Below are positions 1 to 49,800 of a DNA stretch of 53,760 nucleotides, piece by piece. A program made the translations under genes and the position numbers. A model generated the notes under the pieces. That model had not been told where the DNA came from and made no database searches. It saw only the letters and a program-made list of their open reading frames with translations. The stretch is from a virus (lineage: Duplodnaviria; Caudoviricetes), in the IMG/VR virus record IMGVR_UViG_3300046000_006960, positions 1 to 53,760 of that record; one strand, given 5' to 3'. The first letter of the stretch is position 1, and each line of letters starts with the position of its first letter.

Positions 1-3000
1 TACAACTTGCTCTTCTTCCAGACCTTGTTGCTCTTCTTTACTTTGAAGATCGTTTTCTATCTCTTGATTATTAAGCTCTTCTTCTTTTTGCTTAATGATT
101 TCTTTTATATAAGGGTTTTCAACTAAAGGATTAATGTTTTCTTTCTTATATGTTTTTAAATCATTCCAAAACTTTAATTCATTATCTATAGATGTTATTG
201 CTAACTTATCTATAATAGATTTTTCTAGTCTTTTTAATTTTTCTTTTTCAGACTTTAAATTTTGTTTAGCTTCAAATAATGCTTTTGTAGTTTTTATTAA
301 TTCTTCTTTAATAAACTTATGGTCAGCAACATTTTCATTTTTAATCTTACCCTCAGAAGTTAATAAAGATTTAATTACATTTCTTAATGCATCAGCATAC
401 CCTTCTAATCCTTCAATAGAATTTTCTAAATATTCAATATGCTCTTCTGAAGTTAACTTAGTAGCAAGCAATCTTTCTATAGAATGTCTATGTTCTTTAA
501 ATATTTCCTTATTTTGTTCTAAGTAATCAATTATTTCTGCAATAGAATTAAAATCAGTTTTTTCAATTTGCTCATATCTGTTAAAAACATATTCAATGTT
601 TTTATCAAGTTGTTTCAAATCTTTTTTAATCTCACCTTTAATTCCTTCAAGATATTCTATTTGCTTTTCTACTTTTTTAAGAGCATCTTGACTATCTTTA
701 ATCAACTCTTTTATAAGTTTAGCATTTCTACCTCTTGGAGATTTATCTTGAGCATCTAAACCTTTAATTATTGCATTCTTTTGTTTTACTAAATCATTTA
801 TTTCAGAATCTATTTCTGACATAAAATCATTTAAAGCAGTAACTTCTTGATCAAATGAATCAACTATTTCTGATAAAAATGTTTTAAATTCATCTCTATC
901 TTGTATTTTTTTAGTTATTTTTTCTTCTAAACTTTTTACTGTATCACTTATTTTAGACGAACTAATATTAATAGATTTTAATTTTTCTAAATTAAGCTGA
1001 AGGTTTTCTAAAGAGTCATTTTCATTTACACTTCTAGATAAATCATCTAATATTTCATTTTCCGCAACTTTATCATAATACTCTTTAGTATCTAAAGGAG
1101 TATGAGGTCTAGATAACATTTTATCTAAATCTTCTTTATTTTCTGCAGACTTGATATTATTTATTAAATCATCGGCTTCCTGAATTGCTTCATCTGATGT
1201 TTTTGCACTAAGTTCATTATCTTTTTTAACAAAGTCATCAAAAGTCTCATTAATGTTTTTACCTTGCCATATGTCAGAAATATCTTTTTTACTTTTTTCT
1301 ATTTCTTTTTTTAATGCATTATATTCTTCATTAGTTTTAGATAATAATTCATTGTTTTTAATAGCCTCTTTGGTTCTTTCAGCTCTAGCTATCATTTCAT
1401 CATTAGATATAGTTCCTCCTTTCATATTAGCTACTGGAAATTCAGCGGCTTCATCATATAAAGGATCTATTCCTAATTCATCAAAAATATTATTTCTTTT
1501 TTCTTCTAGCTTTTGTAACTTAGTTTCATTTGCTCTTAACTTATGTTTTGAATTTAAGTAAGAAGCATTTAATCTATTTAAAAATCTATCTTTTTGATCT
1601 TGATTAGCAGACTCGTTATCTAAACTAATTACATCTCTACTAAAATCACCAAACTTTTGATTTTGTTTTTGAAGGTATTTAGCAGTTTCTAATATTTCAT
1701 TCATGAAGTTTTTAGACTTATCTTTCTCATCAGAAGATTGATCTCTTTCTACTATTTCATTTAACTTGACATCTTCTCTTAGCTTTTGTTCTAAAGCCTT
1801 AATACCTATTTCTCCATTATGAATAGATGGCAAGACCATATTAAATATAGCTTCTCTTTTTAACTTGTCAACAACTTCTGTATTTCCAGTTTGAACTGCT
1901 AAATCAAATAGTTTTGATTGTTGTTCAGAAAAATTTAAAGATTTAGCAAGATTATAAACTTCTTTATTATCTAAAAGTCTTTCAGTGGTATCATTGCCAT
2001 CTTTGTCTTTTTTATATTTGTAACTTCCATCTTCATTTTGTTGATATATTTTATTATCAAAAATATCATTAAAATTAGTTATTTGAGAATCTATATTATC
2101 TAATACTTCATTAGTATATTTTCTATTAGCAACATCTTCTTTTCTGCCTTGATAAGACATCATTGGACCACCTAATGCTCCACCTAAAAATATAGCTTTT
2201 TGACCTTCAACAGAAGAAACAGTGTTTACATATTCTTTAGCAAAATCTCCAACGGTTTCAGAAATTTGATCAACATAACTTCTATTATCTTTTTTGCCAA
2301 GCTTATTTTGCATTGCTCTTTTAACATTAAAGTTTTCAGTAGTAGTTTGTAATCCTTCTTCGCCAAAACCTTCAGTTAAAAGAGCTTTTCCTACTTTACC
2401 TACTGACCTTCCAGCTCTATTTACAATACCTTTAATGCCTTGCTCTGCAGATCGCTCAAACTTTTGAGCAGCCTTGCCCCATATAGCTTTGTGCATGATT
2501 GCATTAGGGCCTAAAAGAATACCAACATTAGTTACAAAAGTATTTCTCATAGCCAATGCACGTTGTTCTTTAAAAGCTTCTTCTGCTACATCTGTAGAGG
2601 CTTTTGCAGATAACTCATTGTATTTATTTATATCTATAGAACCATTTCTTCTTTGAACATCTAATTCTTGTAGTTTTTTTGCTACTTTTTGTTGATGATC
2701 TGTACTTCCTACATAACTTTTAATAAAATCAGGCATCTTTCTTTCTAAATCATCACCAACACCTTTAGCTTCTGCTCCAGCCTCTAACAAAGTATTAGAT
2801 GTGATTGCCAAACCACTATCTATTGTTTTTCCAGTAATTCCCATAAATTTTAAAGCACTAACTCCTTCTTCAGCTTTTCCAGCCATTGAAGTATATTTTG
2901 CTAATTTTGCGCTATTTGCAGCTGCTCCAATTAATTTACTTCCAAGTCCTAAATATTCAAAACCAGCGCCAGGAGCCATCATACCTATAATAAAACCAAG

Positions 3001-3576
3001 CCCATCCGCTCCATCTGTAGCCCAAAATGCGGTTGAAGATATATTTGCCCAAAGATTTCCTTCTTTAACGGCTTTAGCTGTATAAACAGGCATTAATTCA
3101 GTATTAATTTTTTCATTCATACTATCCACTGCTTTAATCCATGGATTGTTAAAAGCGGTGTCTATAAACGAATGTTCATCTTTGCCAGAAATTAAATCTT
3201 GAGTATTTTCAGCTGTAGCTTGAATCATCCCTCCAATAACTCCAGGTATTTTTGCAATTTCAGCTCCAGCCTTAATTATAGCTCTTCCTGGTGTTTTTAA
3301 AAGTTGTTCTGTTCCTGATTGATTTTGAGCCCTTAACTCGTTATAAGGATCTTCAGCTTTTAAATCTACAAACTGATCTAAAAATGGATTAGTTCCTTCT
3401 CTGACTTCATCTTGATTATAACTATTAAAATTAACTCTGTGTTTTTCTTTGTTAAATGCATTATTTACAACTAGATTTCTTTTTTTCTTTGTATTTTGCT
3501 TTTTAAAGTTTTCATCTAAAGTATTAAGAAAGTTTTTATCATAACTGCCTAAAAGTCCTTCATCTTCTTCTTCCAT
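1..3576 (-). CDS. Giant virion cargo/ejection protein, N-terminal part only (runs off the window; possibly the virion RNA polymerase-associated giant protein)
   Basis: Absent from the ORF track because it has no stop in the window. ATG at 3576 (MEEEDEGLLGSYDKNF...ELRAQNQSGTEQLLK...AFWATDGADGLGFIIG). Frame read open at both ends (...IENDLQSKEEQQGLEEEQVV at position 1), not checked codon by codon throughout. Position after the cargo genes is typical of Crassvirales. No RNAP catalytic motif seen in this part. Confidence 0.7.
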   Translation of the reverse strand, partial: MEEEDEGLLGSYDKNFLNTLDENFKKQNTKKKRNLVVNNAFNKEKHRVNFNSYNQDEVREGTNPFLDQFVDLKAEDPYNELRAQNQSGTEQLLKTPGRAIIKAGAEIAKIPGVIGGMIQATAENTQDLISGKDEHSFIDTAFNNPWIKAVDSMNEKINTELMPVYTAKAVKEGNLWANISSTAFWATDGADGLGFIIGMMAPGAGFEYLGLGSKLIGAAANSAKLAKYTSMAGKAEEGVSALKFMGITGKTIDSGLAITSNTLLEAGAEAKGVGDDLERKMPDFIKSYVGSTDHQQKVAKKLQELDVQRRNGSIDINKYNELSAKASTDVAEEAFKEQRALAMRNTFVTNVGILLGPNAIMHKAIWGKAAQKFERSAEQGIKGIVNRAGRSVGKVGKALLTEGFGEEGLQTTTENFNVKRAMQNKLGKKDNRSYVDQISETVGDFAKEYVNTVSSVEGQKAIFLGGALGGPMMSYQGRKEDVANRKYTNEVLDNIDSQITNFNDIFDNKIYQQNEDGSYKYKKDKDGNDTTERLLDNKEVYNLAKSLNFSEQQSKLFDLAVQTGNTEVVDKLKREAIFNMVLPSIHNGEIGIKALEQKLREDVKLNEIVERDQSSDEKDKSKNFMNEILETAKYLQKQNQKFGDFSRDVISLDNESANQDQKDRFLNRLNASYLNSKHKLRANETKLQKLEEKRNNIFDELGIDPLYDEAAEFPVANMKGGTISNDEMIARAERTKEAIKNNELLSKTNEEYNALKKEIEKSKKDISDIWQGKNINETFDDFVKKDNELSAKTSDEAIQEADDLINNIKSAENKEDLDKMLSRPHTPLDTKEYYDKVAENEILDDLSRSVNENDSLENLQLNLEKLKSINISSSKISDTVKSLEEKITKKIQDRDEFKTFLSEIVDSFDQEVTALNDFMSEIDSEINDLVKQKNAIIKGLDAQDKSPRGRNAKLIKELIKDSQDALKKVEKQIEYLEGIKGEIKKDLKQLDKNIEYVFNRYEQIEKTDFNSIAEIIDYLEQNKEIFKEHRHSIERLLATKLTSEEHIEYLENSIEGLEGYADALRNVIKSLLTSEGKIKNENVADHKFIKEELIKTTKALFEAKQNLKSEKEKLKRLEKSIIDKLAITSIDNELKFWNDLKTYKKENINPLVENPYIKEIIKQKEEELNNQEIENDLQSKEEQQGLEEEQVV

Positions 3577-3578
3577 AA

Positions 3579-5606
3579 TTAATTTTTATTATTTGGATAT
3601 TTAGTAAGCAATTGAGAAGGTTTTACGCCTCTTTTTATTGCTCTATAATTTAATGCTTGTTGAGCATCGCTATCACTATTATATCTTGCTGCTAATTCTT
3701 TATTTGTTAAATCAGCATAGGCATTATTTACTAGTGAAGTATAAACTTCTTGTCCTTGAAAGTTGCCAGTAATTCCATTAACTGTTCCTTTGTTTTTATA
3801 AAAATTAGCAATAGCTCCTGTTAAATTTTTATAACCTGGAGCAGAACCAGTATCTGCTGAATTTGTAAATCTTTTTAATTTAAATGTCACAGTAACTTGT
3901 TTTTTAGAACCTCCATATTCATCTTTACGCTTAACGCCTTGAGTGTCATACTCATTTGCGTCTTCATTGGTAGTAAATACAGCAGTAATTTCTGGAGATT
4001 TATTGTCTCCATATGTTTTTATATTACTTATTTTAAAAGATTTTTGATCTGAATTTTTAAGTAAATCTTGAATATTAGCAACATCTTCATCGGTCACATC
4101 TTTTCTAAAGCCTCCAGTAGTTTGAACGCCAGTTAAATCTAGAACGCTAGATATATTTGGAATTCCTTTTAATACCGTGGCAACATTTTCATTATGTAGA
4201 TTCCACTCTCCCTCTTCTTTAGGAGTAGACGGCATGTAAGAATAATTATGTCTTAAAGAAGATGATTTTTGCCAAGCATCGTTTTTAAGTTTTTTTCTTT
4301 GTGATAAAATTTTATCCATATAAGATAAATCTTTATCTTGCATTATTAATTTTAAATCAGGATCAGATTGCTTTCCTTTAAAAGACCCTACGCCTTTACT
4401 AAATAACAATCTAGGTAAAATACTTGGATCTTTTTTAACCGCAATAACTTCTTCTTGAGTCATATTCATTTTTTTAGCAAGTCTTTCCCATTTTGAATAT
4501 TCTTTTTTAAATGTTATGTCGTTGGCTTTGTAATCTTTGTTTTGAGTTAACTTAGCATCTGCTTCTCTTCTTAATTCAATTAAATCATCTAACTTTGCTT
4601 GATCTGCAGGATTTAAGCTTTTAGAACTAGACAATCTTTTTATTTCACTTAATACGTCTGAATATTCTTCATAATTAGTAGCGTCGCTTTTTATTTCAGT
4701 ATCGTTGCTAATTATTTGCCCAGCAGGACCTTCTTCGTCAGATTTTTCAGGTTTTGGAGGAGCGTTATAGTTTGCACTTTCAGATATTTTATTAATGTCT
4801 GAATTTTCAAGCATTGAATTAAAGTCATTAATAATTCTATCTTTATTTAATCCTATTCCAGCATGTGTCGCCCATTTTTTACCCTCGCCATTTGGATTGT
4901 CCCATGTATCCAATGCTGAATTAAGTGCAGCTTGAACTTGATCAGTGTTTTTAGATTTAATTCTATCTCCATTTCTAGTAACTTCCCAAAAACTACCATC
5001 AGGACCATATTCTAAATGATGTCCAGCTGAAGAAATTCCCTCAATAGTTTTTCCTAATATTGAATGAGCTCTAGATAAATACTGACCATAATCTTGATAA
5101 GCAGGAGCTCCAAGAGGTTCTATGTTTGTAATTTTACCATCTTTAAATCCAGTATAATTATTCTCAACATAATTGTTCCAATTTTTTTCAGCTTGATCTT
5201 TTCCTATTTTAGAAACTTCAGTTGCATTTTTTATGTAATCATCATGTTCTTTGTTAAAAATAGCTTTTGCTGCATTTATTTTACCAAATTCTCCCATAGG
5301 AGAAACTAAATCTTGATACTTTCTATTTAAAGCAATTGTTTTACCAATCATATCATTGTTTATTCCGTGCTTAGATAATTCAGTAGCAGTATTATCTAAT
5401 TCTGACTCAATACCTTTTTTTAATTCTAAAGCTGTGTCATAATGAAATTTCAATGGATCAACTTTCGCTATACCAGCTCTTATTAATTCGTTTTCAGCTA
5501 ATAATTTATCATGCTTTTCACGTTTCATCATTGGAACAAAAGCTAATTCCTGCATAGTTTGAGGAGTATATCCTGAAACTGTAATATCATCATAACGATT
5601 ACTCAT
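3579..5606 (-). CDS. Putative virion cargo/ejection protein
   Basis: 675 aa, hydrophilic and helical. Lies between the xxGG-repeat cargo protein and the giant protein, as in crAss-like gene order. Confidence 0.55.
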   Translation of the reverse strand: MSNRYDDITVSGYTPQTMQELAFVPMMKREKHDKLLAENELIRAGIAKVDPLKFHYDTALELKKGIESELDNTATELSKHGINNDMIGKTIALNRKYQDLVSPMGEFGKINAAKAIFNKEHDDYIKNATEVSKIGKDQAEKNWNNYVENNYTGFKDGKITNIEPLGAPAYQDYGQYLSRAHSILGKTIEGISSAGHHLEYGPDGSFWEVTRNGDRIKSKNTDQVQAALNSALDTWDNPNGEGKKWATHAGIGLNKDRIINDFNSMLENSDINKISESANYNAPPKPEKSDEEGPAGQIISNDTEIKSDATNYEEYSDVLSEIKRLSSSKSLNPADQAKLDDLIELRREADAKLTQNKDYKANDITFKKEYSKWERLAKKMNMTQEEVIAVKKDPSILPRLLFSKGVGSFKGKQSDPDLKLIMQDKDLSYMDKILSQRKKLKNDAWQKSSSLRHNYSYMPSTPKEEGEWNLHNENVATVLKGIPNISSVLDLTGVQTTGGFRKDVTDEDVANIQDLLKNSDQKSFKISNIKTYGDNKSPEITAVFTTNEDANEYDTQGVKRKDEYGGSKKQVTVTFKLKRFTNSADTGSAPGYKNLTGAIANFYKNKGTVNGITGNFQGQEVYTSLVNNAYADLTNKELAARYNSDSDAQQALNYRAIKRGVKPSQLLTKYPNNKN

Positions 5607-43137: not shown

Positions 43138-43360
43138 TATATCTATTTACTAAGTATCTTGTAAACTCATTATTATCAAATCTTTGTTGTAAATCCATAA
43201 ACAATTTAGCAAATGTTTTACTACCATCTGGTAAATATATATGATATTTATCTTGTGTTATTCCTTCTGACCAAGCCATAAATCCATTAGGATGTTCTGG
43301 AGAATTTATAACTGTCGCTTCAAAGTAAGGACATTCTAATTCATTATTTTCATCACTCAT
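43127..43360 (-). CDS. Hypothetical protein, first gene of the late operon
   Basis: 77 aa, directly downstream of the promoter at 43386-43416. Confidence 0.55.
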   Translation of the reverse strand: MSDENNELECPYFEATVINSPEHPNGFMAWSEGITQDKYHIYLPDGSKTFAKLFMDLQQRFDNNEFTRYLVNRYNEL

Positions 43361-43385
43361 TTAACTTCTAATTTTAAATCTTGTA

Positions 43386-43416
43386 CAAAGATACAACAAA
43401 TAAATGACATATGCAA
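43386..43416 (-). promoter_or_regulatory. Bacteroidota -33/-7 promoter heading the late operon
   Basis: TTGC-N19-TATCTTTG. Confidence 0.75.
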
Positions 43417-43465
43417 GTTTTTTTGCAATTATTTTTAAAAAAAGTGAAAATAATTTAAAAGGCAT

Positions 43466-43500
43466 AAAAAAACCCACTAAAACAATAAGTTAAAGTGGGT
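43466..43500 (-). terminator. Intrinsic terminator closing the candidate ncRNA
   Basis: ACCCACT...AGTGGGT followed by a T run. Confidence 0.7.
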
Positions 43501-43816
43501 GTAATAAAAGTAATTGCAATTTAGCCCTGTCTTTTTTAGACTGTCCAGACTACTTTATCTTAAACATAAGTTTCCTATAACTATAACGTTGTTATAAGTT
43601 TACTTTAAATAGTTATTTAATTAATATATATGGCGAGGTTTCCCACAAAACTGTTGTTCTGCAGAAACCCTTGGCTTACCAGTGTTATTGAAGTCGTCAT
43701 ACCTCGCTAAACCCGTACCTACATTATCTATCCTCTTTTGCCCTGGACTGTGATTGCAATAATCACTATAATGTAGCAACAATATCCTTAATAAGTTGCC
43801 TGTTTATTTTACTGAG
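43466..43816 (-). ncRNA. Candidate ~350-nt structured ncRNA of unknown family
   Basis: Bounded by a consensus promoter and a terminator. Longest ORF seen is 27 codons. Many helices, with G-U pairs valid only on the minus strand. Confidence 0.55.
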
Positions 43817-43819
43817 CCA

Positions 43820-43850
43820 CAAAGATACAACATTTATTTGACAAATCCAA
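43820..43850 (-). promoter_or_regulatory. Bacteroidota -33/-7 promoter
   Basis: TTGG-N19-TATCTTTG. Confidence 0.75.
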
Positions 43851-44116
43851 ATTTTTTAGTAACTATTTTCATATATTTTATATTACCTATAGCTTTTATT
43901 GTAAAAAATATTTTTTAAAAAAATTTTTCAAAACGTTTTTTATTAATGTAAGAGTGAGATAACCCAACATCATGCCCCGACCTTTTTCAAATTTTGGGAT
44001 ATACCCGTGGCTTTTTGCTACAGGTATCTCACAAATTGTCTAACTTGAATAATACGCGATGAATCAGCGATTATTCTACAAAACAAAGCAGGCGTGCTTA
44101 ATAATACGTTATAGTT

Positions 44117-44581
44117 ATGGAAATTACTAAAGAAAGAGCAGAACAAATCATTAACAAACGTTCGTTAGTTGAGCAAGCAGGTGTTCCTTACAAAAAAGTA
44201 GAAGTACTTTATGTAGGATATACTGACGCAGACGGCGACGCTTTTGTTAATGATGAAACAGGCGAAGAATTCGCTATTGTTAGTTTCAATGCAGTAACAC
44301 CTTATCAGCTTGAGAAAGCTGTTGAAGATTTTGTTGCAGAAGATTATGATTCAGCTACTAATCATAAAGTATCTATGCGTATGCCTATTAAACAAGCTAA
44401 TCTTGTTTCTAAAGGTTGTCCAGGTACTTTAATTCTTCGCGAGGCTGAAGTAGAAGTTGACGGAGAGAAAGTAATTGGTTTATTTGCTAAATCATTTACA
44501 CCTGCGCAAGCTGTTGATAGTAAGAAAGTATCTCTTGCAGATTTACTTGCTAAAGCATCAGCACCAGCTGTTACAGCTTAA
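44117..44581 (+). CDS. Hypothetical acidic protein, first gene of the plus-strand early region
   Basis: 154 aa, GCT/GTT/GAA-rich codons suggesting high expression, own terminator. Confidence 0.7.
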   Translation: MEITKERAEQIINKRSLVEQAGVPYKKVEVLYVGYTDADGDAFVNDETGEEFAIVSFNAVTPYQLEKAVEDFVAEDYDSATNHKVSMRMPIKQANLVSKGCPGTLILREAEVEVDGEKVIGLFAKSFTPAQAVDSKKVSLADLLAKASAPAVTA

Positions 44582-49446: not shown

Positions 49447-49521
49447 GTCTTAATCGTACAATAGTGAGTATTCTCTATATTTTTTATAGAGACAATTTAG
49501 GTTCAAGTCCTAATTAAGATA
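49447..49521 (+). tRNA. tRNA-like element with an aberrant U-rich anticodon arm (Lys-UUU-like or pseudo-tRNA)
   Basis: Acceptor GTCTTAA/TTAAGAT, D stem GTAC/GTAT, anticodon stem CTCTA/TAGAG around 9 nt TATTTTTTA, T arm TTAGG-TTCAAGT-CCTAA. Confidence 0.6.
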
Positions 49522-49591
49522 TCGTATTTAGATAAAAGAAAAAGGTGCGTTCGTCAGTACAGGGAAGAGGTCCTATCTAAATTGGAACATA

Positions 49592-49663
49592 ATCTGTATC
49601 TGCTAAGGGTAAGCTGCCTAGCTTGGTGTTAGGAGAACGTGGGTTCGATCCCCATTACAGGTT
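49592..49663 (+). tRNA. tRNA-Pro(TGG), non-canonical
   Basis: Acceptor ATCTGTA/TACAGGT, anticodon arm CCTAG-CTTGGTG-TTAGG, T arm GTGGG-TTCGATC-CCCAT. Confidence 0.7.
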
Positions 49664-49800
49664 CAAATAAACTTCATAATGTTTATTTATTAGTTAGTTA
49701 ATAATGTGAGTGAAACTTAGCGTCCAGTCTGTGGAATAGGAGTAGCTCACATTTTTTAAATATTAGAAAACAATTAAAAACAATAAAAAATTAAATAATT

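Follow-up and report, generated by a model that had tools for sequence, protein, structure and literature searches.

A pseudoknotted noncoding RNA family with its own promoter and terminator in phi14:2-like crAss phages

GOLLD, ROOL and the stable RNAs C and D of phage T4 are orphan structured RNAs of phages and prophages, often encoded beside tRNAs or co-transcribed with them. The pRNA of phage phi29 is a structured RNA of ~170 nt that lies upstream of packaging genes and shows a covarying loop pairing, which is 4 bp long and intermolecular. Promoter-proximal structured RNAs that head long operons are represented by HK022 put and the Bacillus EAR element, the latter of which is also pseudoknotted. 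Few known phages are as abundant as the crAss-like ones, and to our knowledge almost nothing has been learned about their RNAs. For the crAss-like phage phi14:2, one preprint describes long noncoding RNAs at the g004-g005 and g005-g006 junctions that are abundant, early and rightward (bioRxiv 10.1101/2020.03.07.982082).

Here, we describe an RNA family common to a group of aquatic crAss-like phages, starting from a 53.8-kb virus-record fragment with a completeness estimate of 53% (53,760 nt; hereafter the window, meaning this entire stretch of DNA). As an orphan structured phage RNA near tRNAs it resembles GOLLD, ROOL and T4 RNAs C and D; compared with GOLLD and ROOL, however, it is much smaller, its fold is unrelated, it has no Rfam match, and it is carried by phi14:2-like crAss phages. 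The resemblance to phi29 pRNA lies in size, loop pairing and location, whereas crAss-like phages use a terminase, a relative with an 86% identical terminase lacks the RNA, and Rfam 15 returns no match. Like put and EAR, it is a promoter-proximal structured RNA heading a long operon; unlike them, it ends in a strong terminator of its own, behind which lies a second promoter, shows no sequence or model match to either, and is dispensable in relatives with the same operon. The phi14:2 long noncoding RNAs are likewise noncoding transcripts of a related crAss-like phage, but they map to another part of the genome, and our covariance model (R1) finds nothing in the whole phi14:2 record.

An insulated unit at the head of a co-directional block

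Genes for a Crassvirus major capsid protein (PF23898, E = 3.6e-173), a portal protein and a GroEL-like chaperonin are found in the window; among named phages, those closest to it are Cellulophaga phage phi14:2 (Crassvirales) and the FpV phages of Flavobacterium psychrophilum. From position 43360 down to position 1, nearly all genes lie on the (-) strand, and a (+) strand block begins at 44117. The RNA unit (43466-43851 on the (-) strand; Table 1) is self-contained, consisting of a Bacteroidetes-type promoter, ~350 nt of RNA and an intrinsic terminator. It stands at the head of the ~43-kb co-directional block, a position that is invariant among homologues, and includes a G+C island (43650-43749) with a G+C fraction of 0.45, compared with 0.18-0.30 in flanking genes. 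PHROGs offered no family for six of the seven ORFs neighbouring the unit, and peptide patterns from the early 154-aa protein encoded upstream of the RNA retrieved no relatives.

Table 1. Features of the RNA unit and of the downstream promoter in the window; the last column gives base pairs with changes on both sides (double changes) in alignment A5.
Feature	Position	Strand	Description	Double changes (A5)
Promoter P1	43820-43851	-	-33 TTTG (GATTTGTCA) at 43839-43851; -7 TATCTTTG at 43820-43827	
Conserved pseudoknotted core	43627-43801	-	175 nt here, 151-175 nt in homologues; 167.2 bits with R1	
Hairpin P1	43776-43799	-	GCAAC...GUUGC; loop carries pseudoknot 5' strand CUUAUUA (43789-43795)	0/5 pairs; 3/5 pairs never vary
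P2 domain (helix 3, P2)	43720-43775	-	Outer helix UACAUUAU/AUAAUGUA	7/8 pairs
P2a (helix 4)	43750-43766	-		5/6 pairs
P2b (helix 5)	43730-43748	-	Loop GGGCAAAAG	3/4 pairs
Invariant single-stranded ACGGGUUU	43709-43716	-	Invariant in alignments A2 to A5	
P3 5' strand (helix 6, P3)	43701-43707	-	GCGAGGU; partner ACCUCGC at 43633-43639	3/6 pairs (G-C <-> A-U types); 100% paired
Junction, then pseudoknot 3' strand (helix 2, pseudoknot)	43670-43700	-	Conserved junction AUGACGACUUCAAUAACA; 3' strand UGGUAAG at 43675-43681	5/8 pairs; not part of the model
P4 hairpin abutting P3 3' strand (helix 7, P4)	43633-43667	-	P4 at 43639-43667, P3 3' strand at 43633-43639; includes near-invariant GGGAAACC	8/10 pairs
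P5 hairpin	43574-43598	-	In A+U-rich 3' part; position kept, sequence variable; read by eye	
Optional 3' hairpin module	43522-43553	-	Contains CUGGAC of the earlier note	
Intrinsic terminator	43466-43500	-	ACCCAC...GUGGGU + U7; hairpin -13.4 kcal/mol, then T7	
Promoter P2	43386-43417	-	Promoter of the downstream operon, not part of the RNA; 26 nt upstream of the ATG at 43360 that starts the first ORF	

Promoter P1 combines a -33 TTTG with a -7 TAnnTTTG, which we take to be the Bacteroidetes sigma-A promoter form, and transcription from it probably starts near 43812-43819. Exactly two copies of the 13-mer TGTTGTATCTTTG occur in the window, one in promoter P1 (43820-43832) and one in promoter P2 (43386-43398), each on the (-) strand. 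The terminator was missed by a simple scanner with an 8-nt loop limit, and we suspect its longer loop to be the reason. An earlier note on this DNA had proposed a stand-alone, late-expressed RNA of ~350 nt at a strand switch, enclosed by a promoter from 43820 upward and a terminator at 43466-43500 and followed by a second promoter from 43386 upward. All three signals are present, and the RNA is indeed a stand-alone one of ~350 nt, to which no Rfam 15 family matches. The location at a strand switch is correct for the window but does not generalize, as one gene intervenes in two near-complete relatives. The timing needs revision: the sequence of promoter P1 closely resembles that of the promoter in front of phi14:2 g110, which the preprint classes as a middle promoter mapped by primer extension and read by the host polymerase (bioRxiv 10.1101/2020.03.07.982082). 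Because of this match, "middle" fits promoter P1 better than "late."

A GCTAT(A/T)(G/A) box is conserved in place among homologues ~50-60 nt upstream of the promoter P1 -7 box (~43880-43895 on the (-) strand of the window), and none is found at promoter P2. Since three homologues (L004, L035 and L040) carry an extra promoter-like TAnnTTTG just before this box, some transcripts may start upstream of promoter P1.

Searches of viral and metagenome contigs yielded 33 homologues (31 distinct sequences), which score from 71.6 to 190.3 bits with R1. They always lie on the same strand, upstream of the small-gene/GroEL-like/terminase/portal block of phi14:2-like crAss phages. Specifically, loci reached through the GroEL-like neighbour contained the element in four cases (L004, L009, L010 and L012), and a search with the invariant pattern returned 13 viral and 14 metagenome stretches. 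Two looser patterns returned 66 and 26 stretches, from which R1 accepted 4 and 5 new loci, respectively; GenBank phages contained no blastn match to the region. The RNA is present in one copy in the window and in each of two near-complete genomes searched with R1. Homologues of the window's operon proteins follow on the same strand in 14 of the 17 loci examined, and the first ORF downstream of the RNA varies between phages. Two loci (L081 and L100) had no match at all to these operon proteins, and the sole match in L090 was on the opposite strand, to the early 154-aa protein encoded upstream of the RNA.

The RNA is missing from some close relatives. R1 did not detect it in the complete phi14:2 and FpV4 records or in the L005 contig, nor did it do so at the syntenic sites of L005 and phi14:2 when its filters were switched off. 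Contigs L005 and L006 span the same site without the RNA, and both of these, as well as L007, share the operon. L005 lacks the RNA although its terminase and capsid proteins are 86% and 94% identical to those of the window. The RNA is still present where terminase identity is down to 46% (L075).

The arrangement of the unit is maintained across homologues. Among the 32 homologues with upstream sequence, 28 have a -7 box 12-30 nt ahead of the core, and a terminator is located 71-208 nt downstream of the core in 26 of the 30 with at least 120 nt of downstream sequence. These terminators are conserved, with hairpins of -10.9 to -15.2 kcal/mol and T-runs of 6-9, and are followed by a new TAnnTTTG box in 25 of 26 cases, the exception being L040, which has only 123 nt of downstream sequence. 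tRNA genes share the unit in two homologues: a tRNA-Thr sits between promoter and core, 12 nt upstream of the core, in L054, and a tRNA-Tyr sits 60 nt downstream of the core, ahead of the terminator, in L075. Both lie beside the core rather than inside it, and ARAGORN found no tRNA or tmRNA gene within 43466-43851 of the window. In L081 and L090, the core is followed by an ORF with no terminator before it, so the RNA would be a 5' leader there. Separately, L020 carries a ~120-nt insertion (~3700-3820) between P5 and the terminator with a T-arm-like end (AGAGTTCGACTCTCT), in which ARAGORN found no tRNA.

Fold, novelty and possible expression of the RNA

The (-) strand of the region folds better than its shuffles (z = -3.63; 0/100 shuffles as good), whereas the (+) strand is not outstanding (z = -1.72; 8/100 as good). 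The core consists of hairpin P1, a branched P2 domain, the helices P3 and P4, which abut with no nucleotide between them, and a pseudoknot. Around the helices run invariant unpaired stretches (ACGGGUUU, GGUAUGACGACUUCAA, AAGCCAAG and GGGAAACC), and the 13 distinct variants of P4 share one hairpin fold. Applied to the unrefined MAFFT alignment, RNAalifold yielded only 19 pairs because variable hairpins were misaligned there, and it was replaced by a hand-set structure with realignment to the model.

Covariation was counted on alignment A5, which comprises 47 pairs in seven helices (1307 cells). Of these cells, 89.7% are paired, compared with 37.6-48.3% when partners are slid, with the qualification that nested helices were counted on a model-fitted alignment, which favours the structure, and that the sequences represent few clades, so cells are not independent events. 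Changes on both sides were found in 31 of the 47 pairs, and none of 500 shuffles attained the observed value on any of five measures. Hairpin P1 is invariant, and covariation therefore neither supports nor contradicts it. A scan of all column pairs returned, as extra helices, only alternatives built from invariant letters, pairing GGGUUU with AAACC or AAGCC and UUGUUG with CAAYAA. Given these alternative pairings, the fold described here may be one of several states. K-turn and T-loop readings of GACGACUUCAA, made by eye, were both dropped; L075 breaks the T-loop pattern.

The pseudoknot, 6-9 bp long, crosses P3 and links the loop of hairpin P1 with the strand directly 5' of GCCAAG. It is maintained by six or more distinct sequence pairs, among them CUUAUAUAG/CUAUAUAAG, CUUAUCUAG/CUAGAUAAG, CUUAACUAG/CUAGUUAAG, CUAAUUA/UGAUUAG, CUAGUU/GGCUAG and CUUACA/UGUAAG, with CUUAUUA/UGGUAAG in the window, where the 3' strand overlaps the invariant GCCAAG (43670-43675). 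Because the pseudoknot is absent from the model, its covariation constitutes an independent test.

The earlier note had described a structured, strand-specific RNA with the helices GCAAC/GUUGC, CUACAUUAU/AUAAUGUAG, GUGAUU/AAUCAC and GCGAG/CUCGC and a long hairpin. This description agrees with the strand difference in folding, and all five helices are present; the covariation check on homologues, a failure of which the note had named as refuting, showed that they covary, except for the invariant GCAAC/GUUGC. The note was also right to call the RNA pseudoknotted, by virtue of the covarying P1-loop pairing, but not in the pair it named. Of the 28 distinct homologues whose downstream sequence extends for 150 nt or more, only 2 have both halves of its pairing, GUCCAG (43748-43743) with CUGGAC (43548-43543). 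GUCCA belongs to the local covarying hairpin P2b, and CUGGAC sits in the optional 3' module, which among those 28 is confined to the window and L029; the long-range pairing was accordingly rejected.

As the earlier note had anticipated, the family is not a recognised one. At gathering thresholds, Rfam 15 matched only a tRNA (49592-49663) in the whole window. With E up to 10, the stretch from 43300 to 44150 gave five weak matches, each below half its gathering score, and with E up to 5, 11 homologue loci gave four matches, all under gathering, with no family in more than two loci. Full-text literature searches of main texts listed no description of this RNA. Set against Rfam 15 and this literature, the RNA family and its fold are new; the newness concerns family and fold, as other orphan structured RNAs encoded by phages near tRNAs, a loosely defined category, were known before.

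Contigs of 200-268 nt from a close relative, with a P4 resembling that of L031, were present in three metatranscriptome runs of one study. They span 43663 to 43789, 43795 or 43840, plus 73-91 nt further 3'. These contigs are a weak hint of expression, coming from a single study with possible DNA carry-over and including one that begins ~20 nt upstream of the likely transcription start; the stretches that they leave uncovered are evidence of nothing.

Possible roles of the RNA

We think it rather probable that the unit constitutes a gene in its own right, whose product is a stable, structured noncoding RNA that is expressed from a middle-type promoter, acts in trans and serves an accessory function. 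The insulated unit, the company of tRNAs and the conserved unpaired nucleotides in a pseudoknotted core argue for this reading, as do the lack of antisense targets and of a reverse transcriptase and the patchy occurrence among close relatives. Specifically, a search of the window revealed no target complementary to either of two conserved single-stranded motifs, and reverse transcriptase (PF00078) was found in none of five records, including two near-complete RNA-bearing genomes, with positive controls, which speaks against an RT-template RNA (retron, DRT or UG27). Under this reading, the host sigma-A RNA polymerase would start at the phage promoter P1, make ~350 nt and halt at the strong intrinsic terminator, and the operon would be served by the identical promoter P2. 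The functional part would be the core of ~150-175 nt, with hairpin P1, the branched P2 domain, abutting P3/P4, the pseudoknot and the invariant unpaired stretches. The folded RNA would then act in trans, offering a protein or small-ligand binding site or a catalytic core; we do not think that it is an mRNA, an antisense RNA or a leader. Its function would be accessory rather than core, such as host takeover or counter-defence. The earlier note had suggested a packaging, regulatory or decoy role; of these, packaging as a core function is made unlikely by the absence of the RNA from close relatives.

Covariation, a complex pseudoknotted fold and invariant unpaired nucleotides are together hallmarks of specific binding or catalysis, and its length brings the RNA within reach of chemical probing and structure determination. 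Its carriers are relatives of culturable systems (Cellulophaga and Flavobacterium phages), and natural genomes with and without it can be compared.

The invariant position at the head of the ~43-kb block would suit a cis role too, and such a role, by antitermination or attenuation, is the main rival to a trans-acting RNA. In processive antitermination of the HK022 put or Bacillus EAR type, the RNA would make the polymerase read through its own and later terminators, which would suit its constant promoter-proximal, same-strand position, the terminator directly after it and the two loci (L081 and L090) in which an ORF follows with no terminator between. We judge this unlikely, since the equivalent of promoter P2 after nearly every terminator relieves the operon of any need for read-through, the terminators are strong and conserved, and the same operon does without the RNA in close relatives. 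Moreover, terminator-like sites in the block show no enrichment over shuffled sequence (7 versus 5.0 expected and 5 versus 4.5 expected).

Another conceivable function, to which we give a small probability, is that of a free-standing aptamer with no gene to control, produced in quantity so as to sequester a host molecule, such as a nucleotide used in immune signalling or a protein of defence or translation. The look of a large riboswitch aptamer, the RNA's own terminator and gain and loss among close relatives in the manner of counter-defence genes would fit this idea, which, if true, would make the RNA a counterpart of known protein sponges.

It is about as doubtful that the RNA is a self-cleaving or RNA-processing ribozyme tied to the maturation of co-transcribed RNAs. 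In HDV-like ribozymes, a nested double pseudoknot is combined with P1.1, a short P3/L3 and, in J4/2, a catalytic C, and the strand order of our core (pseudoknot 5', P3 5', pseudoknot 3', P4, P3 3') is somewhat reminiscent of that architecture; in addition, two homologues have tRNAs inside the promoter-terminator unit. However, in the majority of homologues there is no tRNA that could be processed, Rfam ribozyme families gave no match even with E as high as 10, and the core has neither an equivalent of the short P3/L3 nor any nucleotides between P4 and the P3 3' strand, the place of the catalytic C in HDV-like ribozymes.

Attenuation by a riboswitch, in which a ligand-sensing aptamer and the terminator would choose between a short RNA and read-through, receives little credence from us. 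The compact pseudoknotted core with invariant unpaired nucleotides, the terminator behind it and the mutually exclusive pairings among invariant segments are what one would expect of such a device, but the stretch between core and terminator is A+U-rich, variable in length (71-208 nt) and tolerant of insertions, including a tRNA. No conserved anti-terminator pairing was seen by eye in that stretch, promoter P2 bypasses any such control, and no Rfam riboswitch family matches.

It is highly improbable that the RNA is a primer or origin transcript, i.e., a middle-promoter RNA that primes or opens an origin beside the divergent region, as happens at T4 oriF and oriG. Although the RNA adjoins the strand switch in the window and an A+U-rich stretch follows the core, the loss of the RNA from close relatives is unexpected for an origin, an R-loop primer has no need of a conserved tertiary fold, and a gene separates RNA and switch in G002 and G003.

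A small protein gene is almost certainly not the explanation: of 26 distinct homologues, 6 (the window, four L015-clade sequences and L075) keep one sense frame free of stops over the core, but in the other 20 every sense frame is interrupted, substitutions compensate one another in helices and do not follow a codon pattern, and the longest candidate, a 53-codon ORF at 43621-43782, starts with TTG instead of ATG and is not conserved. The 27-codon ATG ORF (43617-43700) that the earlier note took to be the longest does exist, although the TTG ORF exceeds it, and conservation follows neither frame, contrary to the outcome that the note had named as refuting.

Other elements in the window and its relatives

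Several further elements surround the unit. Between the strand switch and the RNA, one near-complete relative (L095) has a 205-aa HNH-endonuclease-like ORF (1748-2365, (-) strand), and another (L094) has a 108-aa ORF with an HExxH motif (1074-1400, (+) strand). In the divergent region, the G-rich motif AAAAAG.GT.GGGG..TGAT...GGGTTA occurs once in the window (43955-43995, (-) strand), as well as at L002 2395-2430 and L005 ~2635-2670, with a looser version at L003 ~370-400; it is kept in the window, phi14:2 and L005 and, more loosely, in FpV4, and it could be an early promoter or origin element. The early (+) strand region of the window contains long stretches without ORFs of at least 70 aa and encodes tRNA-Lys(UUU) and tRNA-Pro(UGG) at 49447-49664.

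In L005 (~2800-3700), the same promoter-to-terminator slot holds another, G+C-richer noncoding stretch of ~330 nt (fold z = -2.5) with no Rfam match, followed by a GIY-YIG-like ORF; this stretch may represent an RNA cargo of another, unrelated kind or else an endonuclease leader. The closest relative of the window, L004 (GroEL-like protein 85% identical), has a tmRNA gene in its early region (182-550 on the (-) strand of the locus), which matches RF00023 with 58.4 bits (gathering score 47; E = 1.8e-21) and for which ARAGORN predicts a tag ending in FELAA; the window has no tmRNA gene. Finally, the GroEL-like gene of L097 (4182-6635) matches as two pieces ~930 nt apart, and this split may reflect an inserted element such as an intron, intein or endonuclease gene.
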